DNA from: an uncultured virus (IMG/VR IMGVR_UViG_3300025129_000011)
Taxonomy: Duplodnaviria; Heunggongvirae; Uroviricota; Caudoviricetes
Direction: 5' to 3' (one strand)
DNA: 64,000 bases
IMG/VR virus record: IMGVR_UViG_3300025129_000011
The notes under the pieces were generated by a model. The model did no database searches and was not told the DNA's origin. It saw only the letters and a program-made list of their open reading frames with translations. Of this stretch, positions 4,318 to 57,047 are shown in pieces (position 1 is the first letter of the stretch; every line of letters begins with the position of its first letter). Made by a program: the position numbers and the translations under genes.

Positions 4318-4372
4318 TCAATATATATCGTATTAAAGGTGTAAAGCTCATATTTATATAGAAATAGGGTTT

Positions 4373-8647: not shown

Positions 8648-11600
8648 TCAATTGACCTCTTTTTCTGTTTCTAACGCTACTTTATAGTCTTCTAATACCA
8701 ACTCAACACCAGCTAAATCCAATTCTTTCTTAATCTTAAGAGCTTTTTTATCATCACCCTCTTTTCTAGCCTCAATCCAAAGGTGCGTTAACCAAAATTC
8801 GAAAGTTTTTTCTTTTCTAAGAGTTAGGGTTTGATAAAATTTTTGTCTTTGTGCCGCCCAAGGCTCATATTTTAAAATATCAGTAACACAACATAAATCA
8901 ATTTCCCATTCTTTTGATTTGACATATATATTTGGTTTTCCATTTTCATCATCATGTACTGTAAATTCAGCTAAATTTTCTAAAGCTTTAGGTAATTTAG
9001 TGGTTTTCTTCATTTTTTGAATCTCATCATACTCTAATCGTTTAATGATTTCACGGGTTTTAGATTTCTCAAACTTAATACCTTCAATCCTACGAATCCT
9101 TTCACGCTCATGATAATCTTCTTGAATTTGTTTCCAATCCATGTTTAATTCTTCAAGATTATTTGGTATTTTATTGACTCTAATCCAAAATTGAATTTCC
9201 TTATCTTCCATTTCCATCAATTCAGCTAAAGTATTTTGGTCACCATCTTTGAACGCAGTACCACTATGTAACTCACACTCTTTTTTGGTAAATACTTTCC
9301 TTTCAGTTAACTCCATTTCTTTCGTTTTCTTATTTTTTACCATATCCATTAGAATACCTTCTCTGATTTCAGGTTTAAAACATACTAACAATGGATGAAT
9401 CCTTTTATTGAAGGCATCTAAGTATTTAGGTACGTTATATTCATCAGTTGTTAAATTAGGGTTATTTTCAATTTGCTCAGTTGGAATTAATTTACATTGC
9501 AGATTTATTGTTCTCTCACCAGTTTCTTTATTCGTTACAACTTTAACATCACCATGACTTTTAACCGTACCTGTATTAACGTAATATACTGTATCACCTA
9601 AATTAGCTTTGATATTGTTGGCTATCAATAATTCCATATGAGCTTTTTTAGCTTTTAAATTACCAGCTATTGTAGTTGTTTTCATATCAGTCATATAAGA
9701 AGATATTGAATCTTTAACATTAGCTTTTGAAGCTATTTTAACTAATGGGATTCTAAAATTATAGATATCATCAACCGTTCTGTTGTATAAATCAATAAAA
9801 CTTTCACCATCACCGTTTAAAAGATATTTAATCCCTTCATCTAGGAAATCTTCAATATAACCTGGCATCTTAGACGATTTAATAGTGTTACCAACCAACT
9901 TTGTTTTACCACCAATAAAGTTAGCATAATTTTTTCTAGAGAAATTAATTGTTGATGAACAAATATCATCAATATCTAATCCCATTCTACCAATCATAAA
10001 TAATTCATTGAATTTGGCCACTACAGCGTCTAAACCTACAAGGATTTTACCTTTATCTTTTTCAGTAAATCTATGAGTACCTTTAGGTATGTAAGTATGT
10101 TTACTAACATCTTTTGGAATTGCGAAGTTGAATCCATCGGTATTCTTTAAATTAACACCTCCAATACCACCTATGAAAGTCCCATCCTCAGTTGATATAT
10201 CATAAACGTAATTTTCTTTATCTCTATTTAAAATTTCTTCATTTTTCCAAACCTCATTCGCTTGCATTATCGTTTTATCGGTAAACTCAGAATTATTACG
10301 ATTACTATTTCTTAATTTAAATGATATGAAATTCTCTTTATCTTTACGAAGTTTTAATTTGTATTGAACTCCTAAACAATTCAAAAGATACCCAATACCC
10401 GACATCGCAACTTGTGATTTCATACCAATATCAGAAACCGTTTCCATATCATTACCATACCCATCAGAAGCGCAAACACCATCCATGAAAGCTTTTTTAT
10501 TTTCTAAAGTAGTATTTAAAACAAATGTTGGTACTTTCTTTTCTCTATAACTAGTATAAAAATCCTCACAGAACCTTTGACTAAAATCAGTTTTATACAC
10601 CACAAGGTTATAAACACCACTACTTTTACGATGGTCTTTAATCCTTGGTTTAACATCCCAAAAAGCCCAATTTTCTTCAATAATGGATTTTAATTTCTCA
10701 AGGTTTTCCAAATTATTACTAGATATTTTCCACTCACCTCTCACTCCTTTATTTATATGAGTTTCACCAGTTTTACGAGATTTATAATATTGTTTCCTTG
10801 ACCCATATATCGCAGAACCATCCCCTAAGAAATATCCTAGTAACCAATAAAAATCAGTTCTAGTCTCAGGGAAAGTATCTGTATTATGCTGTGGTAATTG
10901 GTGAACGTCTATTAAATCACCCCTTTTAAGTGAAGATGGTTTAACTTGAATTCCATTTTGGAATAAAGAGTGGTCTTCAGTAACGCAAACTAATCTATCT
11001 TTAGTGGAAACTCTATGAATTTGTTTTTGAGTTTCATGTTTATAAACATAATTAATTTCTTTCCAACCATTAACAGTTAAAACTTCATAAGGTTTAGTCT
11101 CATAATCTCTAATTTCTTCTTCATCAATAGAATTCGAATTAGGGTTATATAAATCACAAATAGGTAAAATATCAATTGCCCCATTATCTTTCCATTTTAT
11201 ATAAATTGGCGTGTTAAAAGTAACAGAATCACCAACCAGAGGTCTAAAATCATAATCCATAAAGAATTTAACCATCAATCTCAAATATTGTCTTCCTCTA
11301 CATGTTGTTTCTTCAGCACAATTAATATCACCCCAGTTAAAGATATTTGGTGCCCCTAGTGAACCAAAGAATGAGTTACCAAGAATTTTAATTGGTAATT
11401 GTTTCTTATCGTACATACTAGCTAAACTACTTTCTTTTTCTATTTGAGATTCTAGTAATTCAAAATCTTCTTTAGGTAATTTATCACCATTAGCTTTCTT
11501 AAAGTCTTTTAATTTAGATAATTCACCTTTATGATGGTTCATTAGATTTTTAAATTTATCCCTTGTTGAAGCGATATAAATTAACATACCTTTCATTACT

Positions 11601-13192
11601 CCCGTAATATCAGTGTCAGGGAAAACATCATGCGTAATCTCAATATTAGGATATAGAGCAGCAAAATCCAGTTTTGCGACGTCTTCAGCATATCCAACCT
11701 CTAGTAATCTAGATAATCCACCAGTAAATGTTTTTCTAGGTTTTAAATCAGGGATAGCCAATCTATTTTCATAAGACCATGCTAACATAATCAATTTCCA
11801 AATACCAGCTGTTCCCATTGTTGTTGAACGCATATAAGATGTAGGAATAATTTTAGATAATAAGAATGAAGCTTGATTATAAACACCATCCACTTGTTCA
11901 GTTTCCCAAAGGTCATCAAGTAAGTATTGTCTAACTATATCAGAACCCTTAGCCTCCTTATAACCTTCTTTTAATGGGTTTTCTTCATTTATCTTATAAT
12001 AAGTGCCATCAGTATTATTATAGGCGTATACGCTATCCTTATCGTTCCAAGTTTCATATATTTTATTACCTTCAACATAAACTCGATTCTCTTTATTTAA
12101 ACCTGAAAATTTGGTAATATATTTTAACCCCGCTTTTTTAATATTCGAGTTGATTGCTTTTGCTCTACGAACTGCATGATAAACATCAACAATATTATAA
12201 CCCCACATTGTGGTTTGTTTATAATATTCACGCTCACCACCTAATTTAAGTGATTTATCAACCCTTCTAATTTTACTATTACCATGTCTATCTAAAGTCT
12301 TAGCGATTAATTCAATATCTAACCCTAAAATATCACATCTAGTAAAAATAAAATGCCAGTCAAAGTTTTCTGAGTTATAACCAGCTATAACATCAGGTTT
12401 TAGTGTATTAATTACATCAAAAAATTTAAGAATTGAATAAGCTTCATAATCCCTTAATTCTTGTTTGGTACCTTCTTGTGGAACTTCTATAATTTCTTCG
12501 TAACCTCTATTATCTCTAATACCAACTTGAAATATTTTATCATCCTTATACCTAATAGGTTCATTGGTACTATCAAATTCATATAATTTGGTTAAATCTT
12601 CACCAGTACCCATCCTCTCTTTAATATCTTCAATATCTTCCTGAGATAATAATCGACCTTTTGGGTTTAATCCTGTTGTTTCTAAGTCAAATTGAAGTCT
12701 ATGGACATCGTTATAATCATCCATCCCTTTAAACAATCGTCTACCAGTGGCAATTAAATATTGTTCAACTGGGTTTATTGTTATAAAATAACTTTTGTGT
12801 GAATCACCATAAACATCAATACCACCATCTTTAAAAAAATTTAATAATTTTGTATAAGGGCCTTTAACTTTGGCAATGTATTTAAAACCATTCTTCATTC
12901 GCCTAGCTTCTTCTTGGTCAGGCATGGAAGTTTTTAGTTTTTTAATAGAAACACCATATTTTTTTGCAGAGGCGGCAATTAAATTTCTTTTACCACCAAA
13001 CATTATTTTAGTAACTTCCTCTTTAAACCATAAAAATGAAATTAATGAGTCTTTTGATATAAATTTACCTCTTTCAGGGTCATTAATTATCAATGAAACA
13101 TCTGGGCTACCATATGGAATTTCTACACCTACAATATATTTCTTTTGGTTTCTACCCTCTAAGAACCTAGCAATAATTTCTTCGTCAACCAT
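8648..13192 (-). CDS. polB: Family B DNA polymerase with an intein
   Basis: ExoI FDLETTG, ExoII GYNSENFD, motif A DFAALYP, motif B KILGNSFFG, motif C GD|TDG split by an intein. Confidence 0.95.
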   Translation of the reverse strand: MVDEEIIARFLEGRNQKKYIVGVEIPYGSPDVSLIINDPERGKFISKDSLISFLWFKEEVTKIMFGGKRNLIAASAKKYGVSIKKLKTSMPDQEEARRMKNGFKYIAKVKGPYTKLLNFFKDGGIDVYGDSHKSYFITINPVEQYLIATGRRLFKGMDDYNDVHRLQFDLETTGLNPKGRLLSQEDIEDIKERMGTGEDLTKLYEFDSTNEPIRYKDDKIFQVGIRDNRGYEEIIEVPQEGTKQELRDYEAYSILKFFDVINTLKPDVIAGYNSENFDWHFIFTRCDILGLDIELIAKTLDRHGNSKIRRVDKSLKLGGEREYYKQTTMWGYNIVDVYHAVRRAKAINSNIKKAGLKYITKFSGLNKENRVYVEGNKIYETWNDKDSVYAYNNTDGTYYKINEENPLKEGYKEAKGSDIVRQYLLDDLWETEQVDGVYNQASFLLSKIIPTSYMRSTTMGTAGIWKLIMLAWSYENRLAIPDLKPRKTFTGGLSRLLEVGYAEDVAKLDFAALYPNIEITHDVFPDTDITGVMKGMLIYIASTRDKFKNLMNHHKGELSKLKDFKKANGDKLPKEDFELLESQIEKESSLASMYDKKQLPIKILGNSFFGSLGAPNIFNWGDINCAEETTCRGRQYLRLMVKFFMDYDFRPLVGDSVTFNTPIYIKWKDNGAIDILPICDLYNPNSNSIDEEEIRDYETKPYEVLTVNGWKEINYVYKHETQKQIHRVSTKDRLVCVTEDHSLFQNGIQVKPSSLKRGDLIDVHQLPQHNTDTFPETRTDFYWLLGYFLGDGSAIYGSRKQYYKSRKTGETHINKGVRGEWKISSNNLENLEKLKSIIEENWAFWDVKPRIKDHRKSSGVYNLVVYKTDFSQRFCEDFYTSYREKKVPTFVLNTTLENKKAFMDGVCASDGYGNDMETVSDIGMKSQVAMSGIGYLLNCLGVQYKLKLRKDKENFISFKLRNSNRNNSEFTDKTIMQANEVWKNEEILNRDKENYVYDISTEDGTFIGGIGGVNLKNTDGFNFAIPKDVSKHTYIPKGTHRFTEKDKGKILVGLDAVVAKFNELFMIGRMGLDIDDICSSTINFSRKNYANFIGGKTKLVGNTIKSSKMPGYIEDFLDEGIKYLLNGDGESFIDLYNRTVDDIYNFRIPLVKIASKANVKDSISSYMTDMKTTTIAGNLKAKKAHMELLIANNIKANLGDTVYYVNTGTVKSHGDVKVVTNKETGERTINLQCKLIPTEQIENNPNLTTDEYNVPKYLDAFNKRIHPLLVCFKPEIREGILMDMVKNKKTKEMELTERKVFTKKECELHSGTAFKDGDQNTLAELMEMEDKEIQFWIRVNKIPNNLEELNMDWKQIQEDYHERERIRRIEGIKFEKSKTREIIKRLEYDEIQKMKKTTKLPKALENLAEFTVHDDENGKPNIYVKSKEWEIDLCCVTDILKYEPWAAQRQKFYQTLTLRKEKTFEFWLTHLWIEARKEGDDKKALKIKKELDLAGVELVLEDYKVALETEKEVN
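10142..11227 (-). mobile_element. PolB cis intein (362 aa) with LAGLIDADG endonuclease
   Basis: VGD/SVTFNTP..VTEDHSL..LLGYFLGDG..FMDGVCASDG..VYDIST..NLKN/TDG. Confidence 0.92.
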
Positions 13193-13753: not shown

Positions 13754-14008
13754 TTATGTATTTAAAGATTGAATTAATACAATTGCTTGGTCAATTGTTT
13801 GGAAACTCCTATTTGGAACCAATACATGTTTATCAAATATGATGATAGGGATTACAGGTTCACCAACGAAATCAAATAATTTAATGACATGTTCTCTATT
13901 GGAATCATCATCAATATTTATATTGGTGAACTCAAGGTTTAATTTGCTTAACTTTTCTTGTAAATCCTTACAATAAGGGCAATTATTACTTGTATATACT
14001 TTTATCAT
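13754..14008 (-). CDS. Glutaredoxin/NrdH-like redoxin
   Basis: IKVYTSNNCPYC active site; 84 aa. Confidence 0.88.
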   Translation of the reverse strand: MIKVYTSNNCPYCKDLQEKLSKLNLEFTNINIDDDSNREHVIKLFDFVGEPVIPIIIFDKHVLVPNRSFQTIDQAIVLIQSLNT

Positions 14009-16914
14009 AACTCTAATCCGTTTTCTTCTAAATCATTTAATAATCTGGATAATCTATCACTAGTTTTATCACCTCTATTTAATATTTTATCAATATTTTT
14101 TTGTTTATTCATCACAGAATACCACATCACAAAAGATACTGTACCTCTAAATAATTGGTAATAAACTGAAACGTTATTTTTCTGCCCGATTCTGTAACAA
14201 TTATGAACATTATAATTACCAACTACAAATGAGTGGTCATCTTCTACTGATAAATCATAAACCCTTTCCTCACCTCTTTTAGGTTTTGAAATTTTAATTG
14301 ATTTAATCGGGTAAGTAATATAATCACCTACTTGATTAATTCTTTTATTTTCAACTCTATTTAATGAATACTCAATTGAGTAATTATTAACATTTTTATT
14401 AGATAAAGTAACACTCCTACCTAAATTAGCGTTATATCTAACCAATTGTGATATTAATTTTAAAGAAGCGGTAGTAGCTTGTTGAGTATTTTTACGTTGG
14501 TAACCATCACCATGATAATACCCATCTAATAAATGTTTTAATTGTTCATTATTTAAATAATCAACCCAATATGGTAATTGTTTAGAATATACATTTTCAC
14601 CGAACCACATTTTAAATAAATTTGCCATTTCACTAGAATGTATGGTACAAGTTTTTGTATTATTTTTATCAACATAAGATGAATGTTTATCAATTTTAAA
14701 ACCCCTTTTTATTATATCAATAATATATTCTGAAGCGTCATACATTTTAGGGTTAGTTATTTTTTGACATACATTAATTGTATCTGATTTATTATCAGAA
14801 ATACTACACCAACCATCAGCAATGTAAAACCCAAAAGCGTATAATAATTCATTAGTTAATAAAACACTTTTAGGTAAAGTAACTAACCTACCATTGGTTT
14901 GTAAAAGATTGTGATTATTTTTAAAGTACTTACTTTTAAAACTTGGTATTTTTAATTCTTCTAATCTACTTATTGGTTGATGTTCACTTCTAATCGTTAA
15001 AAAATGATTCAAAATATTTAAATCTTTTGCTTCAATCCAAATAAAATCATCTAATATTTTATCATATACATATAATTTATGGTCATGTGTAACTGATAAA
15101 CTGTTATTATATCCAAAAGCATTTATATCATATCTTAATTTTTTACGTTCTAATTTAGAAGTTTTATCAATTACATTTTTAAATTTACCTTTATGTGTAT
15201 AAACTTTATCACCAATTTCAATTTCTTGAATCATTTTATAACCATCGTCAGTCATAACCCATTGGTCACCAAATATACATCTATCTTCCGCTTGTTCATT
15301 ATCCCCTGGCACCCAACTGAATGAATTAAAGATAACCACAGTACCTTCAGTTAACGTAATACCAACACCCGCAGAAGCTATATTTCCAATAAATACCTTA
15401 CATTTCTTATTGGTTTGGAATTTATCCACTGATTTTTGTTTTTCAGTTGAATTCATTCTACCATTATGTATAACGCATTGATTTCCGAAATGTTCAGCTA
15501 ATTCTTCCAATTCATCAGTAAAAGTAGTAAAAATAACGATTTTTTGACCTTGTTCTATGGCATCTTCAGCTAATTCGATTGTTTTTGGTATCACTTCCAT
15601 AGCAATAAACTTTCTTAAAAGACCTAATTCAACCAAATCTTTATTTAAACTAACTCGCTTACCTTCAGCCGCCTTTTTCTCTAAATATTCTTCCCAAAGG
15701 TTTTCATATTCAGCCCAACCACGTTTTGACATATCATGATACATTGTGGTAATGGTTTTATCTGGCATATCCAAAACATCAGTTTTTAATCTTCTTAAAA
15801 GGTTGTTTTTAGTTCTAATTCCTAATTCATCTAAATTAGAAGCACCATCAGTTATCCAAATCTGTCTTTTAACTCCGTTTATTACTTTATAAAATCTTTT
15901 AGCATCACAATATCTTTGAGCAAAGAACTTCCAATTATCAGCCAATGGTGATTTAACCAATTTTAATAAATTGAAGAAATCCATAGGTCTATTAGCAATT
16001 GGTGTACCTGTTAATAACCACACTTTACCGATTTGACCTTTAGAAACAATATCATTGATTAATTTGGTTCTTTGAGCTTTGGGGTTTTTAACCTTATGAG
16101 CTTCATCTAAAATCATCAAATCATAATCTTCATCAATTATATTGGTGTAACAAGGGTCACCTTCTTTTTTAGGTTTACCTATACTGTGAAAGTTTTTAAG
16201 TATTTCATAATTTATAATGGTAAACCTACCAACGTGAGACCACTTACTACCATTAATAATCGTAGCTTTTTGTTTAAAACTTTCTATTTCTCGTTGCCAA
16301 GTAATTTTCATACTCACTGGACAAATTATTAAAACTTTTTTAATATCCATTTCTAATGCAGCGATAATTGATTGATAAGTTTTTCCTAGGCCCATCGAAT
16401 CAGCTAAGATTGCACCATCTCTACACGCTAAGAACTCAATACCACTTTTTTGATGCTCATATGGGTGACGGCCATCAGTGTCTAATTCTTCATATTTACC
16501 CCAATCAATTTCAATTTCACATTCAGTAAAATATGGGTCATCCAAAACCATTGTTTTTGGTAACCAATACATTTTGGATTGTTTTTGTTTTTGTGTTAGC
16601 TTACCATAAACGTGATATGTCTTTTCTTGGTCAGCCAACATTGCTTGAATTAGCATACGCTCAGGTACAAAAGATAAACTGTATTTATCTTTTAATGATT
16701 CACCTAGAAATGGGTTAATCCTAATCACACGATTTAGGACTTGTGGTTCCACATCATGAAATTTATTTATATATTCAACTTGACCTTCAGTTAAAGTTAT
16801 TTTATCATTTTTTCTTAACTTACTTTGCAAGTCTTTTAAGTATGGGTTAATCCCTGTATATGTTTGTAATAAGGTTACTGCACCTCTACTCTTTATGTCT
16901 TCTAAATTTATCAA
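14005..16914 (-). CDS. SNF2/HARP-like helicase with an intein
   Basis: ADSMGLGKT, DEAH, LTGTP, GVGITL; motif VI QAEDR|CYRIGQ interrupted. Confidence 0.93.
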   Translation of the reverse strand: MINLEDIKSRGAVTLLQTYTGINPYLKDLQSKLRKNDKITLTEGQVEYINKFHDVEPQVLNRVIRINPFLGESLKDKYSLSFVPERMLIQAMLADQEKTYHVYGKLTQKQKQSKMYWLPKTMVLDDPYFTECEIEIDWGKYEELDTDGRHPYEHQKSGIEFLACRDGAILADSMGLGKTYQSIIAALEMDIKKVLIICPVSMKITWQREIESFKQKATIINGSKWSHVGRFTIINYEILKNFHSIGKPKKEGDPCYTNIIDEDYDLMILDEAHKVKNPKAQRTKLINDIVSKGQIGKVWLLTGTPIANRPMDFFNLLKLVKSPLADNWKFFAQRYCDAKRFYKVINGVKRQIWITDGASNLDELGIRTKNNLLRRLKTDVLDMPDKTITTMYHDMSKRGWAEYENLWEEYLEKKAAEGKRVSLNKDLVELGLLRKFIAMEVIPKTIELAEDAIEQGQKIVIFTTFTDELEELAEHFGNQCVIHNGRMNSTEKQKSVDKFQTNKKCKVFIGNIASAGVGITLTEGTVVIFNSFSWVPGDNEQAEDRCIFGDQWVMTDDGYKMIQEIEIGDKVYTHKGKFKNVIDKTSKLERKKLRYDINAFGYNNSLSVTHDHKLYVYDKILDDFIWIEAKDLNILNHFLTIRSEHQPISRLEELKIPSFKSKYFKNNHNLLQTNGRLVTLPKSVLLTNELLYAFGFYIADGWCSISDNKSDTINVCQKITNPKMYDASEYIIDIIKRGFKIDKHSSYVDKNNTKTCTIHSSEMANLFKMWFGENVYSKQLPYWVDYLNNEQLKHLLDGYYHGDGYQRKNTQQATTASLKLISQLVRYNANLGRSVTLSNKNVNNYSIEYSLNRVENKRINQVGDYITYPIKSIKISKPKRGEERVYDLSVEDDHSFVVGNYNVHNCYRIGQKNNVSVYYQLFRGTVSFVMWYSVMNKQKNIDKILNRGDKTSDRLSRLLNDLEENGLEL
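14200..15279 (-). mobile_element. SNF2 cis intein (360 aa) with LAGLIDADG endonuclease
   Basis: EDR/CIFGDQ..VTHDHKL..FGFYIADG..LLDGYYHGDG..VYDLSV..VHN/CYR. Confidence 0.93.
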
Positions 16915-47464: not shown

Positions 47465-49915
47465 ATGAGTGACATCAACAAGCAAGATGGTTTTGGATTT
47501 TTAGGAATTCCTTACCAAAGAAGACTTATAACCCAATTAATCACAGACCATAAATTTGCTACAAATATAATGGGGATAGTAGACCCAAACTACTTCACAG
47601 ATTTATATTTGAGAATTATAGCATCTGAAATAAAAAATGCGTTTGAGACTGATGAAGTTATACCAGATATTGAAAGCTTAGAATTTAGGTTAAATGGTAG
47701 AAAAGATAATGAAACTACTAAACTATATATCAAAGCATCAATAGCTGAAATTAAAGATGGTAACCTGAACGATTCAGAATATGTTCAGGATATGGCCATG
47801 AAATTTTGTAAACAACAAGAATTAAAGAAATCAGTTCATGAAATTCAAGAAATAATAGATAAAGGTGATTTAGATTCATATGATGAATGTGAAGAAATAT
47901 TAAAAAGAGCGTTAGAAGTCGGAAGTGATAAAGATTCTGGAATTGATGTTTTTTTTAATATTGAGGCAGTTCTAGAGGATGATTTTAGAAAACCAATACC
48001 TACAGGTATTGCTGGTTTAGATGATAAAATGGGTGGTGGTTTATCAAAAGGTGAATTGGGTGTTATATTAGCACCGTTTGGTGTTGGTAAAGCACAACCA
48101 TTACATTCTAAAATATTAACACCTAATGGTTGGACTACTATGGGTGAGATACAAGTTGGTGATGAAGTTATAAGTAGGGATGGTAAAGCGACTAAAGTCA
48201 CTGGAGTGTTTCCACAAGGCGTTAGACCAATTTATGAGGTTAGATTTAATGATAATACTAAAACTTTATGTGATGCTGAACATTTATGGTCAGTTAATAC
48301 AATCAATCAACGAAATAGAAAAACTAAAAAAAATGGTGTGATGGTTAAATTAGAACCTGATAATTCATTTAAAACTTTAAAAACTATTGATATGGTTGAT
48401 AAAGTTAGGGTTTGGGGTAATAAGCGTTTAAATTATAAAATACCAAATATCTTACCCGTAAATTTTAATAAAAATGAATTAATTATTAACCCATATTTAT
48501 TAGGTGTTATATTAGGTGATGGATGTATAACTGAACATAATCAACCCCATATTACAACTAAAGATGTTGAATTAATAGATGAAATTGAAAAATATCATAA
48601 TAATATTAATATTACTGAGCAAACACGAATGTTTGAAGTTTACAAAAATGGGAAATTTGAAAATGTAGAAAGAACCTTAACAAAAATTTCTTTATTAGGT
48701 ATTAAAGATGATTTAAGTAGTTTAAAATTATATGGTTGTAATTCAGAAACTAAATTTATCCCACATAACTATCTATATTCTTCAGTTGAAGATAGAGTTT
48801 CGTTATTACAAGGATTAGTAGATACTGATGGTTATATTGGTAACAATAGAATTGAGATTTGTACCGTATCAAAAATGATGTCGGAACAAATCAAAGAATT
48901 AGTATTGTCATTAGGTGGTACTTGTAATATAGGTGTAAAAATTGGTAGTTATTTGAAAGAGGGGGTTAAAATTAGATGTAAAAAAGCATATCGAGTTTAT
49001 TTTAGTTTACCAACACAAATAAAATTTAATCCATGTAGACTTGAAAGGAAGTTGAATAATTTAAGTAAAAGGTCTAAATATGCTAATAATAAATTTATTA
49101 CTAGTATTGAATATTCACATGAGGAAGAAGCTCAATGTATTATGGTTGATAATCCAGAACATTTATATATAACTGATGATTATATAGTAACACATAACAC
49201 AACCATGGTCACCAAAATAGCCAACGAAGCTTTTAATCATGGATATAATGTTCTTCAAATATTTTTTGAAGATATTCCTAAAGTGATTCAAAGAAAACAT
49301 TTATCATGTTGGACTGGGATAGCTCAAAACGATTTACCATTAAAAGCAAACAGACCCATCATTGATGAAGTCATGAAAGAAAAAAATGATGGTAAAGGGT
49401 ATTTAGAATTGAAAAAATTTCCTAGTGATGGAACAACAATTCCTATGATTAAAAATTATATTAGAAAACTAGCAGCCGCTGGTAGAAAACCTGATGTAAT
49501 TTTAATTGATTACATTGATTGTGTATCATCAACCAAACATTACGATAAGGGATATGAGGCTGAAGGGCCAATTATGAGACAATTCGAATCATTATTGAGC
49601 GAATTTGATTTGGTTGGATGGACTGCAATTCAAGGTAATCGATGTGTTTCATTAGATACTATTATTGAAGATTCTAAACGTGGTAAAATTGAAATTAGAG
49701 ATGTTAAGTTAGGGGATGAAATTTTAACTCATAAGGGTTACAAAAAAGTTACCCATATATTTCCTATTGCTAAGCAACCAGTTTATAAAATAAAATTAAA
49801 ATCTGGTAAAACCATTAAAGTATCTAAAAAACATAAGTTCCCAACAAAAGATGGTGAAATGTTATCAATTGAAGATGGTTTAAAAGTTGGAAACATACTT
49901 TTAGGTAAAAAATAA
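47465..49915 (+). CDS. dnaB: Replicative DnaB/gp41 helicase, N-terminal fragment (cis intein plus split-intein N half)
   Basis: IPTG..LD..GGL..GELG..APFGVGK|TT, IDYID, WTAIQGNR followed by an intein N-half and a TAA stop. Confidence 0.93.
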   Translation: MSDINKQDGFGFLGIPYQRRLITQLITDHKFATNIMGIVDPNYFTDLYLRIIASEIKNAFETDEVIPDIESLEFRLNGRKDNETTKLYIKASIAEIKDGNLNDSEYVQDMAMKFCKQQELKKSVHEIQEIIDKGDLDSYDECEEILKRALEVGSDKDSGIDVFFNIEAVLEDDFRKPIPTGIAGLDDKMGGGLSKGELGVILAPFGVGKAQPLHSKILTPNGWTTMGEIQVGDEVISRDGKATKVTGVFPQGVRPIYEVRFNDNTKTLCDAEHLWSVNTINQRNRKTKKNGVMVKLEPDNSFKTLKTIDMVDKVRVWGNKRLNYKIPNILPVNFNKNELIINPYLLGVILGDGCITEHNQPHITTKDVELIDEIEKYHNNINITEQTRMFEVYKNGKFENVERTLTKISLLGIKDDLSSLKLYGCNSETKFIPHNYLYSSVEDRVSLLQGLVDTDGYIGNNRIEICTVSKMMSEQIKELVLSLGGTCNIGVKIGSYLKEGVKIRCKKAYRVYFSLPTQIKFNPCRLERKLNNLSKRSKYANNKFITSIEYSHEEEAQCIMVDNPEHLYITDDYIVTHNTTMVTKIANEAFNHGYNVLQIFFEDIPKVIQRKHLSCWTGIAQNDLPLKANRPIIDEVMKEKNDGKGYLELKKFPSDGTTIPMIKNYIRKLAAAGRKPDVILIDYIDCVSSTKHYDKGYEAEGPIMRQFESLLSEFDLVGWTAIQGNRCVSLDTIIEDSKRGKIEIRDVKLGDEILTHKGYKKVTHIFPIAKQPVYKIKLKSGKTIKVSKKHKFPTKDGEMLSIEDGLKVGNILLGKK
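48092..49198 (+). mobile_element. DnaB P-loop cis intein (369 aa), Ala1 class 3, with LAGLIDADG endonuclease
   Basis: GK/AQPL..CDAEHLW..LLGVILGDG..LQGLVDTDG..QCIMVD..VTHN/T; WCT triad. Confidence 0.9.
49643..49912 (+). mobile_element. Split intein N half (90 aa), gp41-8-like
   Basis: GNR/CVSLDT..IEIRDVK.GD..KQPVY.I.LKSGK.I.VS..HKFPTKDG..GLKVG, then stop. Confidence 0.92.
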
Positions 49916-49982
49916 TAATAATCTTTTTTGTATTGCACTTAAACTTTTACATTATCGGTGATATTTATATTAAAATATTATC

Positions 49983-51125
49983 ATGATTAAAATTGACGTA
50001 GAAAATGTAATTAATAGAAAAACCATAAAACCCCTTTATCTAAAAGGGGTTTTAACTCAAAGACATAAAAATGAAATAAATAATATTTGTGATGTATATA
50101 ATAGTGTTACTATAAAAAATAGAATTAAAAATATACACGATTTTATAAAATATGATGTTGACGGTACAATCCCTTGGGTTAAAAGGTTGGAAATTATACA
50201 GAAAGAATTGAATAATGATATTGCTAGTAAGTATGCCTTAGAAATAAGATATGGTAAGTGTAATGTAGATAAAAAGAGGTTTGAATTGGGGGTTAAGTTT
50301 TCTCATACTTTGGAAAAGTATATTGAAAAATATGGTAAAATAATCGGTAATGAAAAGTATGATGAATATTTAAGAAAATCTAAAACACCTTGGGGTTTAA
50401 AAGGTTGTGTGGATAGATATGGTGAAATAGAAGGTAAAAAAAAATGGGTGGAAAGGTTAAATAAAAAAATAAACACTCAAAATGAAAGAAAAAAAATAAA
50501 ACCATATAGGAATGGTAGGACATTGAATGAATATCAAAATAAATATGGTGTAAAACTTGGTTACTTTAAGTGGAAAAAAAGAAATGAAAAGCAGAGTTAT
50601 AGATTCTCAAAAAAATATTATATAAATACTTATGGTAGTGAAAAAGGTAATATTAAATGGGTTGAGTATAAAAAAAGTATGGATAAAACTTCCTTAAAAA
50701 GTTTTATCAATAGGTATGGAGAAAAAGATGGGATTAATAAATATGAATCTTATTTAAGTAAAATTAATGATAGTGGTGTTTTTTATAGTAAAAGTTCACA
50801 AAAGTTATTTTGGTTAATTTATAATCAATTAAGTGACGATAAGAAAAAACTTTGTCGTTTTGCAAAATTAAATGGTGAAGAATATTTCATAGTAAATAAA
50901 TTTGGTTTTAACAATATTTTAGTAGATTTTAAATGTGAGAATAAAATAATCGAATTTGATGGAGATTATTGGCATTTAAATAAAAAACAAATTGAAATTG
51001 ATAAATTGAGGGATGAGTTTTTAACTTCTAAGGGTTATCAGATTTTAAGGGTTAGAGATAGTGAATTTGAGGTTAATAAAGAAAAAGTAATTAAAGAATG
51101 TATAAAATTTATAAAAAATGAATAA
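49983..51125 (+). CDS. Free-standing Vsr-like endonuclease between the dnaB halves
   Basis: Repeated (K/R)YG...G units; VDF..IIEFDGDYWH..D..RD..L..GYQILRV. Confidence 0.85.
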   Translation: MIKIDVENVINRKTIKPLYLKGVLTQRHKNEINNICDVYNSVTIKNRIKNIHDFIKYDVDGTIPWVKRLEIIQKELNNDIASKYALEIRYGKCNVDKKRFELGVKFSHTLEKYIEKYGKIIGNEKYDEYLRKSKTPWGLKGCVDRYGEIEGKKKWVERLNKKINTQNERKKIKPYRNGRTLNEYQNKYGVKLGYFKWKKRNEKQSYRFSKKYYINTYGSEKGNIKWVEYKKSMDKTSLKSFINRYGEKDGINKYESYLSKINDSGVFYSKSSQKLFWLIYNQLSDDKKKLCRFAKLNGEEYFIVNKFGFNNILVDFKCENKIIEFDGDYWHLNKKQIEIDKLRDEFLTSKGYQILRVRDSEFEVNKEKVIKECIKFIKNE

Positions 51126-51633
51126 AAATGAAATTATGAATCTAGAGGGGTTTACTTTAGATGAAATAGAGAGTATTGACTTAATAGGTGAAGAAGATAC
51201 CATAGATATAACTGTGGATGATACCCATATGTTTTTCGCTAATGATATATATACACATAATTCATCGATTAATGCTGAAAATGTTGATTCAAGTATGATT
51301 GGTGGGTCAATCAAAAAAGGTCAAATTGGGCATTTTATTGTTTCAATAGCTAAAGATTTAGACCAAAAAGAGGGTGGTAGAGCTAATATGGCGATATTAA
51401 AATCTAGGTTTGGTGTAGATGGAATTATTTTTACTGATGTAGTATTTGATAACTCCAAAATACAAATAACTATTGATGAAGGTAAAGTATTAAAAGCTTC
51501 AGAAATGGATGACTATAAGAATGAACAAGTTAAAGGAAGAATGAAAGATTTGTTCGAACAATATGAAAAAACTAAAGAAGTTTTAATCACTTCTGAAGTT
51601 GATAAAAAAGAAAAAACAGAGGATGTTAACTAA
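51118..51633 (+). CDS. dnaB: DnaB helicase C-terminal fragment with split-intein C half (51118-51261, 48 aa)
   Basis: DEIESID..G.EDTIDITV..H.FFANDIYTHN/SS, then GGSIKKGQ..ILKSRFG. Confidence 0.92.
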   Translation: MNKNEIMNLEGFTLDEIESIDLIGEEDTIDITVDDTHMFFANDIYTHNSSINAENVDSSMIGGSIKKGQIGHFIVSIAKDLDQKEGGRANMAILKSRFGVDGIIFTDVVFDNSKIQITIDEGKVLKASEMDDYKNEQVKGRMKDLFEQYEKTKEVLITSEVDKKEKTEDVN

Positions 51634-54600
51634 AAAAGAAAAAAGAGTTAAATATTTTAGCGGTGATGATTTAGCCGCAACGGTTTGGAATGATAAATAC
51701 AAACTAGGGGATGAAGGTTCGGAAATTGAAGAATCTACGCCAGCTGATATGCACTTAAGAATGGCAAAAGAATTTGCTAGAGTTGATGGTAAATATCAAG
51801 TAAAAGAATTAAAAAAATTATTGGATAATCCAGAAATTAAACTTAGTGATTATGGATTTAATCGTAAAGATTTAACAGTTAAAGAAATATACGCTTTATT
51901 GGAGAATTTTGGTAAAATAGTTCCACAAGGTTCTGTTATGTCACAGTTAGGTAATGACGAACAAATTGGTTCATTATCTAATTGTTTTGTTATAGGACAA
52001 CCTGAAGATTCTTATGGTGGAATTATGCTTAAAGACCAAGAATTGGTTCAATTGATGAAACGTAGAGGTGGTGTAGGTATCGATATATCGTCATTAAGAC
52101 CTAGTGAAACTCCAACATCAAATGCGGCCAAGAGTTCAACTGGTGCAGTTTCTTTTATGGAAAGATTTAGTAACTCAACTAGAGAAGTTGCTCAAAATGG
52201 TCGTAGAGGTGCACTTATGCTTTCAATTGATGTAAGACATCCAGATGTAGCTGATTTCGTTAAGATTAAGAATGATAGAACCAAAGTTACTGGTGCTAAC
52301 ATATCAGTTTCATTAAGAGATGATTTCATGAAAGCGGTTAAAGCTGATGGGGATTATATTTTAAGATATCCAATTAATGAAGAAATACACCCTGAATGGG
52401 ATGGATTGAATGAATATGAATATAATAAATTATATACGCTAGAAGATGCTAATAACGTTAAAACTTGGGTTAAAAAAATTAAAGCTAAAGAATTATATGA
52501 CCTTATAATTGAGAATGCTTGGGACAACGCTGAACCTGGTCAGATTTTCATTGATAGACACTGGGATTATAGCCCTGATGGTGTTTATCCAGAATATAGA
52601 GGTATAACTACAAACCCTTCATTGCGTCATGATACATTAATACAAACTGATTTAGGGTTATACCCTATAAAGGAATTAGCTGAAAGTGATGGGTTAACAA
52701 TCGTTAAAAATATTAAAAATGAATGGCAAGTTGGTAAAGTGTTTTTATCTGGTAAAGGTAAAGAATTGTATAAAATTACTTTTACTAATGGATATGAAGT
52801 ATATTGCACTGCTGAGCATAAATGGCCGATATTGAATTCACAGAAAAATATTTTTAATAAAGTGAATGGTTCGGTTTTGAAAAAAAGGACTGATGAGTTA
52901 ATGTTTGGACACCCAAAACTTGGTGGTGATAGAACACATTTAGAGTTTAACCCTAATTATGAGGGTAATGTGAGTTGTAAATTAACAAAAAATGATGGAT
53001 TTTTAAGTGGTTATTGGTTAGGTGATGGACACACTTCGATAACAACTGAGGGAGTTAAACAATACGGATTTATAGTATCTGATGATGAATTATTAGATTG
53101 TGGCGATAAATTACTTAATATAATCGGTGAAAATAAAATAAAAAACACTAACAATAATTTTAATAGAGACCATGAAAGTGAAGCATACTCACTATATATT
53201 AGCGAGATTGGATTCAGAGAGTATTGTGATAGATTAAAATTAGGGTATGATAAAATTAATGGGATACCCGAAACAGTTTTCAAAAGTGGTAATAAATTTA
53301 TAAAAGGGTTTATAGATGGATTGTTTTCTGCTGATGGCTCTGTGTGGGCTAATGAAGATTTAGTACATAGTAGAGTTACATTAACAAGTAGTAGATTTAA
53401 CATAGTAAAAGACGTTCAAAAATTATTAAATTTATTTGGAATTTCTAGTAATATACAAGAGCGTAAAGATAAGTTAAATGATAAAACGTTTACTGGGTAT
53501 AATTTAGTTATTAGTGGGGTACACAGTAGGAAATTTGCAACGTGTTTTACTTTAACTTCTAAAGATAAACAAGATAAATTAGATACTATATTAAATTATG
53601 AAAACACATATAAAGATAATAGAGAGTATTTAATTATTAAAAATGTTGAACCAACTGGTATTTTTGAGGATGTGTATGATATAACAGTATTTGATGATAC
53701 ACACACTTTTAAAGGAGAGTTTGGTACGACTGGTAATTGTGGTGAAATATTTATGCAACCATATGATGCTTGTAGATTAATGGCATTGAATTTTTATTCA
53801 TTTGTAGATAACCCATTTACTAAAAACGCTAGAGTCAATTATCAAGCTGTATATGAAGCGGCCTACGAGCAACAAAGATTAGCTGATGATTTAGTTGATT
53901 TAGAATTAGAAAAAATTGATAGAATTATCGCTAAGGTTAAAAATGACCCTGAAAGCGAAATGACAAAAGCTGTTGAATTACAACTTTGGGAAAATATCCG
54001 TAAAGTTGCAGCTTCTGGTAGAAGAACTGGATGTGGTTTTACTGGGTTAGGTGATATGATTGCGGCCACTGGTGTTGATTATGATTCTGAAGAAGGGTTA
54101 GATATCATTGATAAGGTTATGAGGGCTAAAATGAGCGGTGAGTTAGACTGTACTATCGATTTAGCAGCTCTTAGAGGTCATTTCGATGGATATAACAACG
54201 AATTAGAGTATTCTGATGGTGTAGGCACCAATGAGTTCTTTAAGATGCTTAAAACTGAGTTTAAAGAGCAATATGATAGAATGATTATTTATGGAAGAAG
54301 AAACGTATCATTCTCAACGGTTGCACCTACAGGTTGCTTAGTTAAAGAAACTAAACTAAAAACAAATCGAGGTATCATTGAATTGAAAGATTTATTTTTA
54401 ATTAATGGTATTGATATAGATAAATTAAAAAATGAAAAAAATATTTGGTTTGATATTGAAGAAGAAATAATGGTTTATGATATTAATGGTGGTGAACATA
54501 AAATAAATAAATTATATTGGAATGGTTATAGTAAAACTAAAAAAATTAAATTGGGTAATAATGAAAGTGTTGAATCTAGTACCGAACATAAGTGGTTGGT

Positions 54601-54679
54601 TAGGGTTTCTGAAACTGAGGCTAAATGGGTTAGAGCTGACGAATTGAAAATTTCTGATAAAATTATTAAAATAAATTAA
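51623..54679 (+). CDS. nrdJ: Class II (B12) ribonucleotide reductase, N-terminal fragment
   Basis: SLSNCFV, RGGVG.D.S.LRP, GRRGALM, AEPG, TNP|CGE, RRTG.G..G, TVAPTG followed by an intein N-half; ATG at 51623 preferred. Confidence 0.93.
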   Translation: MLTKKEKRVKYFSGDDLAATVWNDKYKLGDEGSEIEESTPADMHLRMAKEFARVDGKYQVKELKKLLDNPEIKLSDYGFNRKDLTVKEIYALLENFGKIVPQGSVMSQLGNDEQIGSLSNCFVIGQPEDSYGGIMLKDQELVQLMKRRGGVGIDISSLRPSETPTSNAAKSSTGAVSFMERFSNSTREVAQNGRRGALMLSIDVRHPDVADFVKIKNDRTKVTGANISVSLRDDFMKAVKADGDYILRYPINEEIHPEWDGLNEYEYNKLYTLEDANNVKTWVKKIKAKELYDLIIENAWDNAEPGQIFIDRHWDYSPDGVYPEYRGITTNPSLRHDTLIQTDLGLYPIKELAESDGLTIVKNIKNEWQVGKVFLSGKGKELYKITFTNGYEVYCTAEHKWPILNSQKNIFNKVNGSVLKKRTDELMFGHPKLGGDRTHLEFNPNYEGNVSCKLTKNDGFLSGYWLGDGHTSITTEGVKQYGFIVSDDELLDCGDKLLNIIGENKIKNTNNNFNRDHESEAYSLYISEIGFREYCDRLKLGYDKINGIPETVFKSGNKFIKGFIDGLFSADGSVWANEDLVHSRVTLTSSRFNIVKDVQKLLNLFGISSNIQERKDKLNDKTFTGYNLVISGVHSRKFATCFTLTSKDKQDKLDTILNYENTYKDNREYLIIKNVEPTGIFEDVYDITVFDDTHTFKGEFGTTGNCGEIFMQPYDACRLMALNFYSFVDNPFTKNARVNYQAVYEAAYEQQRLADDLVDLELEKIDRIIAKVKNDPESEMTKAVELQLWENIRKVAASGRRTGCGFTGLGDMIAATGVDYDSEEGLDIIDKVMRAKMSGELDCTIDLAALRGHFDGYNNELEYSDGVGTNEFFKMLKTEFKEQYDRMIIYGRRNVSFSTVAPTGCLVKETKLKTNRGIIELKDLFLINGIDIDKLKNEKNIWFDIEEEIMVYDINGGEHKINKLYWNGYSKTKKIKLGNNESVESSTEHKWLVRVSETEAKWVRADELKISDKIIKIN
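52619..53737 (+). mobile_element. NrdJ cis intein (373 aa) at the catalytic NP|CGE site, with LAGLIDADG endonuclease
   Basis: NP/SLRHDT..CTAEHKW..SGYWLGDG..FIDGLFSADG..VYDITV..TTGN/CGE. Confidence 0.92.
54335..54676 (+). mobile_element. Split intein N half (114 aa) of NrdJ
   Basis: APTG/CLVKETKL..SSTEHKW..WVRADELK..DKI, then stop. Confidence 0.9.
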
Positions 54680-54726
54680 CTAAAACGCCCTTTGTTTTAT
54701 ACTTATTACAAAGGGCGTTAGTTATG
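54677..54726 (+). promoter_or_regulatory. Hairpin over the endonuclease start region with a promoter-like motif in its loop
   Basis: 12-bp stem aacgccctttgt/acaaagggcgtt, extendable to the A of the ATG; loop contains TACTTAT. Confidence 0.7.
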
Positions 54727-55836
54727 AAAATAAAATATGTAGAATATTATAATGAATTGGTTAGTAAATATGGTGAAGAAGATGGGTTAAAAAAATATAA
54801 ATCATTTTTGAGGTCATCAACATTAGAAACTTATATTATTAAATTTGGTGAAAAGCGTGGTACAGATAAATTCAATAATAAGAAAAAGTCAGGAATATCA
54901 CTAGAAAAAATGATTGAGAAATATGGTGAAAAAGACGGTACTAATAGATATAATAATTGGTTATCTAAAATTAGGCAAGATTTACCAAATTTTATTAAGA
55001 GATATGGTGAAAAAGACGGATTAAAAAAATATAATGAATTTAAAGATAATTGTATTGTTAAAACAAAAATAAAAGAAAACCCCAACTCAAAATATAATAA
55101 TAGGTTACATAATACTAGATATGAATTTTTTTTAGAAGAAAATAATGGTGATATTAATAAAGCTAAAAAACAATTAATTAAAAGACAAAGAACGAGTGAT
55201 TTAAAATCTTTCATTAAAAAACACGGCTTAATAGAGGGTGAAAAAAAATATAAATTAGCTAATAAAAAAAAATCTAATAATATTAAGAATTTTATTAGAT
55301 TATATGGTGATGTTGAAGGTAATAGACGATATTTTAATTATATTAAAAAACTAAAATATATTCATAGTGAAAAATATTATTTAGATAAGTATGGTGAAAT
55401 AGAAGGTAAAGTTAGGTGGGTAGAATTGATTAATAAAAAAACTAATAATTTTATTAATGGTCAATCTAAAATTGGTGATGAATTTTGTAATAATTTATTT
55501 AATGAAATAAAAAAAGATGTTGATGATAAATATTATTTTTCTGAAAATGAATATAAATTCTTTATTCATGATGAAGAATATAAAATAATTCAGCCAGATT
55601 TTTTAATTAAAGAAAGTAAAATAGTTGTTGAATTTTATGGTGATTACTGGCATAGAAATCCAGAAATATATAATGATGATATTTCAAAAATAATTAGGGA
55701 AAAAGATGAAGAAAGGATAAAAAAAATAGAATCTTTAGGGTATATCATATATATTATATGGGAAAAGGAATATCGTTTAAATAAAATTGGAGTAATAAAA
55801 AATTTAAGTAATAAAATAATTAATAAAATAAAATAA
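54724..55836 (+). CDS. Free-standing Vsr-like endonuclease between the nrdJ halves
   Basis: KYGE..G repeats; PDF..VVEFYGDYWH..D.ER..GY.IYIIWE. Confidence 0.85.
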   Translation: MKIKYVEYYNELVSKYGEEDGLKKYKSFLRSSTLETYIIKFGEKRGTDKFNNKKKSGISLEKMIEKYGEKDGTNRYNNWLSKIRQDLPNFIKRYGEKDGLKKYNEFKDNCIVKTKIKENPNSKYNNRLHNTRYEFFLEENNGDINKAKKQLIKRQRTSDLKSFIKKHGLIEGEKKYKLANKKKSNNIKNFIRLYGDVEGNRRYFNYIKKLKYIHSEKYYLDKYGEIEGKVRWVELINKKTNNFINGQSKIGDEFCNNLFNEIKKDVDDKYYFSENEYKFFIHDEEYKIIQPDFLIKESKIVVEFYGDYWHRNPEIYNDDISKIIREKDEERIKKIESLGYIIYIIWEKEYRLNKIGVIKNLSNKIINKIK

Positions 55837-57047
55837 TGAAGGAAAATAACGAAATAATTGATATTAGTAATGTTAATTACAGTGAATGTGAAATATTAGA
55901 TATTGTAGATGGATATGATTATACTATGGATTTTGAGGTGGGTGATACACATTACTATACATTAGAAAATGGTTTAGTGAGTCATAATAGTGTGAGTATT
56001 CTTACTCAAACTACTTCGGGGTTAGAGCCAGTATTTTCCGTATTCCCTTATTTAAGACGTAAAAAGTTAAACCCTAACGATAAAAACGCTAGAGTAGATT
56101 TTACTGATGATAATGGTGACCAATGGCAAGAGTTTTCAGTAACTCATAAACCGCTTATGGATTATATCAAAATCAATAAATTGGATGAAGCAATCACTGA
56201 ATTAAATGATAAAATGAATAAAACCAAAGCTGAAGAAGAAGATTTAGTTTCTAAAGTGGTGATGTTCATAACCAATAACCCTAATCCGTATAGCAATAGT
56301 AGTGCTAATGACATTGATTGGATTGAAAGGGTTAAAATTCAATCAATAATTCAGAAATATACAACCCATTCAATTAGTTCAACAATTAATTTACCTACTG
56401 ATGTAACTAAAGAGGAAGTTTCTGAAATTTACATCAAAGCTTGGGATATGAATTTGAAGGGTGTTACTATTTATCGTGATGGTTGTAGAACTGGAGTTTT
56501 AGTTACTAAAACTGACCCTAAAGAAGATGAAATTGTTTATACAGACGCACCAAAAAGACCTGAAAAATTAGAATGTGAAATTTATCATTCTAAAGTAAAA
56601 GGTAAAATTTATACAGTAATAATTGGATTATTAAAAGGTAAAGTTTATGAAGTATTTGCTAGTGATGAAGAAATTGGTAAAGGTTATACTGAAGCTTATA
56701 ATAAGAAAATTAAATCTGGTCATTATAGTCTTATAACTAGAGGTACTGAAGAAATGATTTATGATAATATCGGTAGCAATATGACTGATGAAGAAGAGAT
56801 GTTCACAAGAGGGTTATCAGCTGCATTAAGACATGGTATGCATGTTAAATTCGCTGTTGAAATGTGTAACAATGGGAAGGGTGATATCACTTCATTTACA
56901 AAGGTTATTGCTAGAACTCTTAAGAGATATATTGAGGATGGAACTTCTTCATCTAAAAAATGTCTTGATTGCGGTGCAGAAAATAGTATTATTTATGAAG
57001 AAGGTTGTCAGCGATGTAAAATCTGTGGTAGTTCTAAATGTGGTTAA
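55836..57047 (+). CDS. nrdJ: NrdJ C-terminal fragment with split-intein C half (55836-55988, 51 aa)
   Basis: TMDFEV..H.Y.LENGLVSHN/SVS..TSGLEP, SISSTINLP, KGVTIYRDG, C-terminal zinc ribbon and Cys pair. Confidence 0.92.
   Translation: MKENNEIIDISNVNYSECEILDIVDGYDYTMDFEVGDTHYYTLENGLVSHNSVSILTQTTSGLEPVFSVFPYLRRKKLNPNDKNARVDFTDDNGDQWQEFSVTHKPLMDYIKINKLDEAITELNDKMNKTKAEEEDLVSKVVMFITNNPNPYSNSSANDIDWIERVKIQSIIQKYTTHSISSTINLPTDVTKEEVSEIYIKAWDMNLKGVTIYRDGCRTGVLVTKTDPKEDEIVYTDAPKRPEKLECEIYHSKVKGKIYTVIIGLLKGKVYEVFASDEEIGKGYTEAYNKKIKSGHYSLITRGTEEMIYDNIGSNMTDEEEMFTRGLSAALRHGMHVKFAVEMCNNGKGDITSFTKVIARTLKRYIEDGTSSSKKCLDCGAENSIIYEEGCQRCKICGSSKCG

Follow-up and report, generated by a model that had tools for sequence, protein, structure and literature searches.

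The 64,000-nucleotide stretch of IMG/VR record IMGVR_UViG_3300025129_000011, from an uncultured Caudoviricetes virus (the whole stretch is called the window here), contains two adjacent fractured genes, dnaB and nrdJ. Each is interrupted by a cassette of an N-terminal intein half (IntN), a free-standing Vsr-like endonuclease gene (EN1 in dnaB, EN2 in nrdJ) and a C-terminal intein half (IntC), and each also carries a contiguous cis intein (Table 1). The explanation that we consider quite likely as a whole is that the cassettes would be two separate mobile elements that entered already-neighboring genes of a jumbo phage. Each enzyme would be made as two precursors, the N-terminal one excising its cis intein, and IntN would then capture its cognate IntC for class 1 protein trans-splicing, yielding a 480-residue helicase and an 883-residue class II ribonucleotide reductase. 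A hairpin would keep the nuclease genes quiet in long early transcripts; the nucleases would be made late, from a promoter inside the hairpin, after which homing would carry the cassette into empty alleles. The choice of partner would derive from the old divergence of site-specific intein families together with extein fit, not from charge reversal or special co-adaptation in this genome.

Table 1. Features of the dnaB and nrdJ loci and of the third cassette (positions in the window unless a record is named).
Feature	Position	Strand	Description	Database match
dnaB-N	47465..49915	+	357 N-terminal extein residues of DnaB/gp41-type helicase, one cis intein, IntN at end	
DnaB cis intein	48092..49198	+	369 amino acids (aa), LAGLIDADG, in Walker A (GVGK|T)	
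DnaB IntN	49643..49912	+	90 aa, Cys1, block-B His, net charge +10	
Hairpin at EN1	49955..49985	+	Over EN1 start codon; holds ATATTTAT (49961), candidate late promoter	
EN1	49983..51125	+	Free-standing Vsr-like (EDxHD-type) endonuclease, 380 aa	PF18741, PF04480, phrog_22677
IntC-dnaB-C	51118..51633	+	IntC fused to final 123 helicase residues	TIGR01443
DnaB IntC	51118..51261	+	48 aa, His-Asn end, Ser+1, net charge -12	
nrdJ-N	51623..54679	+	First 531 extein residues of class II ribonucleotide reductase, one cis intein, IntN at end	TIGR02504 (best match)
NrdJ cis intein	52619..53737	+	373 aa, Ser1, LAGLIDADG, Gly-Asn end, at TTNP|C	
NrdJ IntN	54335..54676	+	114 aa, Cys1, block-B His, net charge +1	
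Hairpin at EN2	54677..54723	+	Strong, directly before EN2 start; ATACTTAT (54699) in loop region	
EN2	54724..55836	+	Free-standing Vsr-like endonuclease, 370 aa	TIGR00632 (E 2e-4), phrog_22677
IntC-nrdJ-C	55836..57047	+	IntC and the 352 C-terminal reductase residues (end of the barrel, TSCPD-like domain, cysteine tail)	
NrdJ IntC	55836..55988	+	51 aa, His-Asn end, Ser+1, net charge -11	
Third cassette	G002:44356-48253 (L257:8356-12253)		sbcC/gp46-like ATPase gene split in Walker A (GGK|TT), Vsr-like gene between	

The six open reading frames (ORFs) of the two loci all lie on the plus strand in the order given by an earlier sequence-only reading of this DNA, and ORFs, frames and profile matches agree on that order with its two cis and two split inteins. 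The start of IntC-dnaB-C overlaps the EN1 stop by 8 nucleotides (nt), and dnaB-C overlaps the nrdJ start, as that reading had also noticed, by 11 nt; a TTG start at 51599 is possible and would extend this overlap to 35 nt, and a relative, L005, begins at the equivalent of the ATG at 51623. Matches to the Pfam profile Intein_splicing, none of which reaches its curated cut-off, were obtained for both IntN (E 2e-6 and 3e-5) and for the DnaB IntC (E 3.5e-4); the DnaB IntN also matches the gp41-1 structure (E 2e-14). The NrdJ IntC scores above the TIGR01443 cut-off for intein C termini (18.7 vs 15.6 bits) and gave no match when searched alone against Pfam; the NrdJ IntN carries an insertion of about 19 residues relative to that of DnaB. 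The DnaB cis intein has Ala1 with Trp in block B12, Cys in F4 and Thr in G5, which we take to be the signature of class 3 inteins. The residue at +1 of the NrdJ cis intein is the thiyl cysteine, which this intein presumably must splice to release. The split site, APTG|S, lies 199 residues beyond that cysteine, the thiyl site itself being occupied by the cis intein. The reductase is assigned to class II by the best match of its N-part, TIGR02504, and by its catalytic cysteines; no nrdB partner (PF00268) was found in five partial records, each 7-25% complete.

The junctions were compared with those of L005, which has about 80% DNA identity to the window, lacks both cassettes and both cis inteins, and has dnaB directly abutting nrdJ. 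The sequence-only reading had proposed such a comparison of spliced products with intact homologues as a check, and the joined exteins align with L005 without gaps at GVGK|TT, QGNR|SS, TTNP|CG and APTG|SV, which bears out the junctions QGNR|SSINAE and APTG|SVSILT that it had predicted. The predicted spliced helicase shares 376 of its residues with L005 and the predicted reductase 722. At the DnaB +1 position, L005 has Gly, and 45 of 48 intein-free clusters have Ser. Neither half amounts to a whole enzyme, since the helicase motif KSRFG and the reductase YRDG and cysteine tail sit in the C-parts. Anatomy and alignment thus support the proposal that each enzyme would require one cis and one trans splice.

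Several observations weigh against this explanation. The NrdJ APTG intein family gave weak profile matches to solved inteins (E 0.01-0.02), and no laboratory-tested member of it was found in the literature searched. The hairpin at the EN1 start is weak when taken alone (-8.5 kcal/mol, z -1.1). In a near-identical record, L002, EN2 carries a one-base insertion, so that this nuclease may be dispensable or decaying. The sole RNA run yielded five short contigs covering 7% of words, too little to show expression. Furthermore, since the two IntC are acidic alike and the DnaB IntN basic, electrostatic capture alone would be unable to sort the pairs. Finally, gp41-8 IntC combined with an unrelated IntN gave a cognate-level reporter signal in vitro (PMC7090010; here and below, statements about published work refer to the available parts of the papers cited); the same paper ascribes non-cognate signals to non-specific electrostatic binding without splicing.

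The sequence-only reading had argued that co-expression from one operon should make the pairs naturally orthogonal, or else helicase-reductase chimeras would form. A single operon is unproven, and a terminator-like hairpin lies early in EN1; co-transcription matters little, because all pieces would be needed in the same cell during replication. The DnaB and NrdJ IntN share 22 of 90 residues (24%) and the IntC 16 of 48 (33%), values that fall inside the inter-family range. Charge reversal was rejected as the basis of orthogonality for this pair, both IntC being acidic; it does fit combinations of the DnaB pair with thiyl-site or PTAS-site pairs in relatives, where most DnaB-plus-reductase pairs are opposite in polarity. 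Measured against random pairs drawn from the same families, co-resident pairs showed no excess divergence (mean percentile 0.66 for IntN and 0.53 for IntC over 20 non-independent pairs), which gives no hint of selection on top of the divergence between families. A complex prediction of the NrdJ IntC with both IntN scored 0.79, and a control with the cognate chain replaced scored 0.65; we counted this neither way. Laboratory work on the related inteins gp41-8 and NrdJ-1 found that they splice rapidly and are orthogonal to each other (PMC7090010, PMC11766414). The sets used there (gp41-1, gp41-8, NrdJ-1, IMPDH-1) belong to the same class of fast, phage-derived split inteins but were drawn from different metagenomic contigs, whereas here several pairs reside in one genome.

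From the residue identities, natural orthogonality of the DnaB and NrdJ pairs is plausible and, provided that they splice, intrinsic cross-splicing is probably low. The main alternative is that splicing occurs in both pairs, but that the inteins by themselves also bind or splice across pairs, extein fit alone ensuring the right products and some chimeric or non-productive waste being tolerated. The common polarity of the two IntC, the unexceptional divergence of co-resident pairs and the non-cognate binding by gp41-8 IntC in vitro (PMC7090010) speak for this alternative. Nevertheless, the identities are those of separate families, different families were orthogonal for splicing in that study, and cross-splicing would be expected to lose or circularize the catalytic middle piece in the three-piece reductases of five relatives described below. 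We judge it rather unlikely.

Splicing itself is suggested by the residues that have been kept. Both split inteins have the class 1 set, namely Cys1, block-B His, block-F Asp, a terminal His-Asn and a nucleophile at +1. In the family alignments, Cys1, block-B His and His-Asn never vary (for Cys1 this is partly due to how the rows were cut), and 119 of the best 120 of 374 dnaB-C homologues are stand-alone proteins that start with an IntC keeping His-Asn-Ser. Additionally, both breaks fall within conserved core motifs. Intein halves could act as docking domains without splicing, like the tails of the fragmented Aeh1 NrdA, part of a phage reductase that functions without splicing (PMC3045599); given the invariant residues and the position of the breaks, we consider this very unlikely here.

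It is even less probable that the nuclease genes are removed at the RNA level as group I introns, or bypassed by ribosomes, to give a contiguous intein. Vsr-like ORFs are indeed also known in group I introns (PMC2677866), but the window has no Rfam match and the cassettes contain merely 67 (dnaB) and 44 (nrdJ) non-coding bases. In addition, IntC starts overlap nuclease stops in 21 of 30 DnaB-site and 17 of 21 NrdJ-site loci, and the 12 of 42 DnaB-site relatives without a nuclease (counted as representatives at <90% identity) retain the stop and the new start.

The sequence of the loci is almost certainly sound. At each locus the three ORFs occupy three different frames with stops between them, so that one sequencing error would not suffice as the cause. 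The IMG/VR records L001 and L003 are 100% identical to the window across the 9,583 bases of the loci, and L002 is 99.77% identical, its 21 substitutions causing three amino-acid changes. Moreover, in two of three DNA runs a single Logan contig covers these loci completely, at depth 63-78 and with no indel. As 23 of the 24 listed runs (21 labeled aquifer, 2 hot springs) are flagged as possible sources of the window, they are evidence for correct assembly and not for spread. An assembly or sequencing artefact, or dead genes, can practically be discounted despite the metagenomic origin and the chance that most identical records share one sampling campaign, in view of these records and contigs, the few amino-acid changes in L002 and the recurrence of the layout in dozens of diverged phages. 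In L002, 13 of the 21 substitutions are bunched at window positions 52501-52609, immediately upstream of the NrdJ cis intein, as would be expected of recombination or co-conversion at a homing site.

The endonucleases also distinguish the two cassettes. EN1 and EN2 are 28% identical, both match phrog_22677, and they share YGxxxG helical repeats. A tree of 53 nuclease domains places 18 of 19 NrdJ-site enzymes in one starred clade and 28 of 29 DnaB-site enzymes in another (89/97), with 4 changes of host site against a shuffled mean of 20. The nucleases thus group by host site, which points to two separate elements and not to a duplication. The helical module, (K)YGxxxGxxKY, is present in 5 copies in EN1 (49983-50760) and 7 in EN2 (54724-55430), and in 26 of 30 DnaB-site and 19 of 21 NrdJ-site nucleases. 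These N-terminal regions of EN1 and EN2 had no Pfam match and no NUMOD match, and they probably bind DNA. The C-terminal domains are Vsr-like with EDxHD residues, EN2 having Tyr in place of the second acidic residue. A model of EN2 (predicted template-modeling score, pTM, 0.37) gave nothing at E <= 0.001 in Foldseek; its match to PDB 3r3p (probability 0.97, TM 0.66 on the target, E 0.56) is a weak fold match. That structure is of I-Bth0305I (PMC3239194), whose C terminus likewise forms a Vsr-like domain containing E-x-x-G-D-Y-W-H and, downstream, an Asp, but EN1 and EN2 have 5-7 YGxxxG repeats instead of NUMOD2/NUMOD3, are free-standing and not intron-encoded, and differ in the Tyr of EN2.

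The hairpin before EN2 is strong (-23.2 kcal/mol, z -6.8, 0 of 200 shuffles), and early in EN1 there is the terminator-like hairpin with a T run (50032-50049, plus strand), a second EN1 hairpin being listed at 50026-50054. The motif ATATTTAT is found upstream of both nucleases (the EN2 copy with one mismatch), of 8 of the 16 virion-module genes and of none of the 10 replication genes; among random windows, 1.6% have it. Of the DnaB cassettes, 16 of 30 carry it within their first 130 bases, but of the NrdJ cassettes only 4 of 21. A scan for sigma-70-like promoters returned 77 sites against 90 expected. From its distribution, ATATTTAT is a candidate late promoter of this phage group, and by analogy with the model of PMC2677866, nuclease expression may be late and hairpin-gated. 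The motif was also seen about 20 nt upstream of virion genes and some free-standing nuclease genes, for example at 4350, 7442, 20764, 32316, 57149, 59250 and 61128.

The dnaB and nrdJ loci are members of the class of fractured genes, described by Dassa et al. in 2009 (PMC2677866), that combine split inteins with a free-standing endonuclease of the Vsr-like or GIY-YIG type, as the sequence-only reading had recognized. They share with those loci the gene order, a short spacer with a hairpin and a promoter-like motif, a nuclease stop overlapping the IntC start, a break lying between motif N4 and motif C2, and hosts in DNA metabolism. However, the published loci have one split pair each, whereas here two are adjacent, a third is found on an overlapping record, and a cis intein is additionally present in each host. 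The published NrdA and NrdJ sites are at the thiyl cysteine and that of the window is at APTG|S; the NrdJ IntN, at 114 aa, exceeds the published range of 88-105; and the promoter-like motif is ATATTTAT here and TATAAATA there. The NrdJ-1 and NrdA-2 allele families were rejected for the NrdJ split intein, since APTG|S is neither at nor next to the thiyl cysteine.

Similarities to individual published inteins are closer for the DnaB pair. Its polarity is that of gp41-8, with a basic IntN and an acidic IntC. Judging by its flanking residues, gp41-8 may occupy the same helicase site; as available, the supplement of PMC2677866 prints no exteins, and searches for the flanks were empty. A comparison by eye with Figure S1 of that paper gives about 47 matches to gp41-8 among the 90 IntN residues, the family-internal range here being 38-84%. 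Again by eye in that figure, 33 of the last 35 residues of the DnaB IntC (with +1) equal those of the "unknown host" entry, whose locus is just upstream of nrdB and for which the available text gives neither IntN nor host. The gene after dnaB-C is nrdB-like in at least 12 of 42 relatives (by a crude pattern, with one confirmed). Judged by these matches, the orphan intein very probably belongs to this helicase, and the family described here provides both the IntN and the host that it lacked.

Relatives show how such sites vary. A gap of more than 600 bases is present at the DnaB site in 30 of the 42 representatives, and 28 of these 30 have a Vsr-like gene in it; the site also has contiguous mini-inteins (L034, L046) and empty alleles (L005). 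All stages of the gene-breaking model of Dassa et al. are thus present at this single site. L131, the closest dnaB relative, has a frameshifted nuclease, and its IntN is 82% identical to that of the window vs 68-74% for the flanking exteins; class I nrdAB takes the place of nrdJ there and is split at the homologous PTA|S. The dnaB-C protein had no match among GenBank phages. The NrdJ APTG|S/T family comprises 23 representatives and is rarer than that of DnaB, with an IntC on 10 of the best 120 nrdJ-C homologues (the window's own included), and is absent from Figure S1 of PMC2677866; the homologous PTA|S position of class I reductases is split by a related family of opposite charge. Many NrdJ C-parts on long contigs (P0025, P0046, P0054, P0072, P0117 and others) start right after APTG without an IntC, which hints at introns or intein-free breaks there.

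The sequence-only reading had counted two fractured genes and missed a third in the same phage, sbcC (Table 1), on record G002, which overlaps the window by 9,242 bases at 100%. Its split intein has a 29-aa IntN and a 128-aa IntC; in this atypical split it resembles the TerL type ("Terminase" of Dassa et al., AceL-TerL) but its host is an SbcC/gp46-like ATPase. The Vsr-like gene belongs to the same PHROG as EN1 and EN2 and lies behind a strong hairpin. The sbcC gene is also split in L263-L266 and L268, and the intact L269-L276 read straight through.

The data do not support the uniqueness that had been implied for such a combination: dnaB and the reductase gene are already neighbors in the intein-free L005, and double or triple fracture recurs in relatives. 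Of 87 locus groups, selected on the presence of one split intein, 17 contain two or three split pairs within 20 kilobases (kb), or 15, the window included, after near-copies are merged; the pair finder misses atypical splits (such as dnaB of L013/L014), and the pairings ARYVDQ and DHSISS, which were wrong, were left out. The reductase large subunit is encoded in three genes with two different split inteins in L015:5762-11149, L022:11505-14747 (/L140), L023:8048-11571, L103 and L055, the middle piece being IntC-reductase-IntN (L055 is cut by the locus end). In L013:1125-11215, recA, dnaB and nrdJ are broken in a row; dnaB is broken there in Walker A, with an IntN of about 34 aa and a long IntC, and the same atypical IntC occurs in L014:2568-3659. 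GenBank LR756500.1 has nrdJ and polB split, and one split PolB intein is described from a cultured jumbo phage (PMC6892783). The polB of L009 was rejected as a three-piece gene, only one split pair being present. A split-intein-like pair at ARYVDQ in L021:3527-6201 has a short ORF and a C-half followed by Gly instead of a nucleophile, and is possibly broken.

The reductase is split in 6 of 14 clusters with a split dnaB vs 2 of 25 with an intact one (Fisher p 0.016), or in 5 of 13 split-dnaB clusters without the window (p 0.034). This comparison covers the 39 of 87 clusters (159 loci) with a visible reductase, ignores kinship and counts mixed clusters as split; the intact set is the best 80 of 591 matches, one intact row of it mis-parsed. 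A phage with one split gene may more often have a second.

The phage of the window is a large tailed one that encodes a sheath, a tube, baseplate gp25, a gp32-like single-stranded DNA-binding protein, a UvsX-like recombinase and a family B polymerase. The same dnaB-C protein and nrdJ-C start were found on a 314,960-base contig (L195), and our records cover about 150 kb of a genome of about 315 kb. Cis inteins were also noted in the family B polymerase (8648-13192, minus strand) and an SNF2-like helicase (14005-16914, minus strand), which brings the inteins of the 64-kb window, those of the dnaB and nrdJ loci included, to six. Further free-standing nuclease-like genes lie at 2319, 17407, 23266, 57541 and 61150. 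An exonuclease-like gene of the same phage (L257:3748-5517) has another LAGLIDADG cis intein, and Logan contigs at the depth of the phage also contain inteins similar to the DnaB cis intein.

What is new here is the presence of at least three co-resident pairs in one phage, their recurrence across a lineage, an intein family that we did not find in print, and a host for an orphan intein. Our literature search, which lay outside subscription journals, patents, InBase and bioRxiv supplements, found no report of several split inteins in one phage, of the APTG family or of a split SbcC, and the word "intein" is absent from PMC12619734 and PMC7162821. Split inteins are common tools for ligating proteins, and screens are run to find new pairs that are compatible with each other. 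Since pairs from one genome have had to function alongside each other, they are pre-selected candidates for compatible sets, and their specificity becomes directly testable with four small proteins.

These data fill in the gene-breaking model of Dassa et al. at one site, and they indicate that division into three pieces is possible for essential phage enzymes. We tentatively entertain a wider possibility, that in a lineage of large phages several trans-splicing reactions run in parallel within one infected cell to make the replication enzymes (at least three in this phage, for DnaB, NrdJ and SbcC, with three-piece reductases in relatives), so that its genomes would represent natural orthogonal sets vetted in vivo, whose specificity can rest on shape. 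If this is true, the DnaB and NrdJ-APTG pairs, with their two acidic IntC, would owe their specificity to shape, through the LYWNG strand, which is invariant in the family, and the insertion of 19 residues in the NrdJ IntN, and not to charge.

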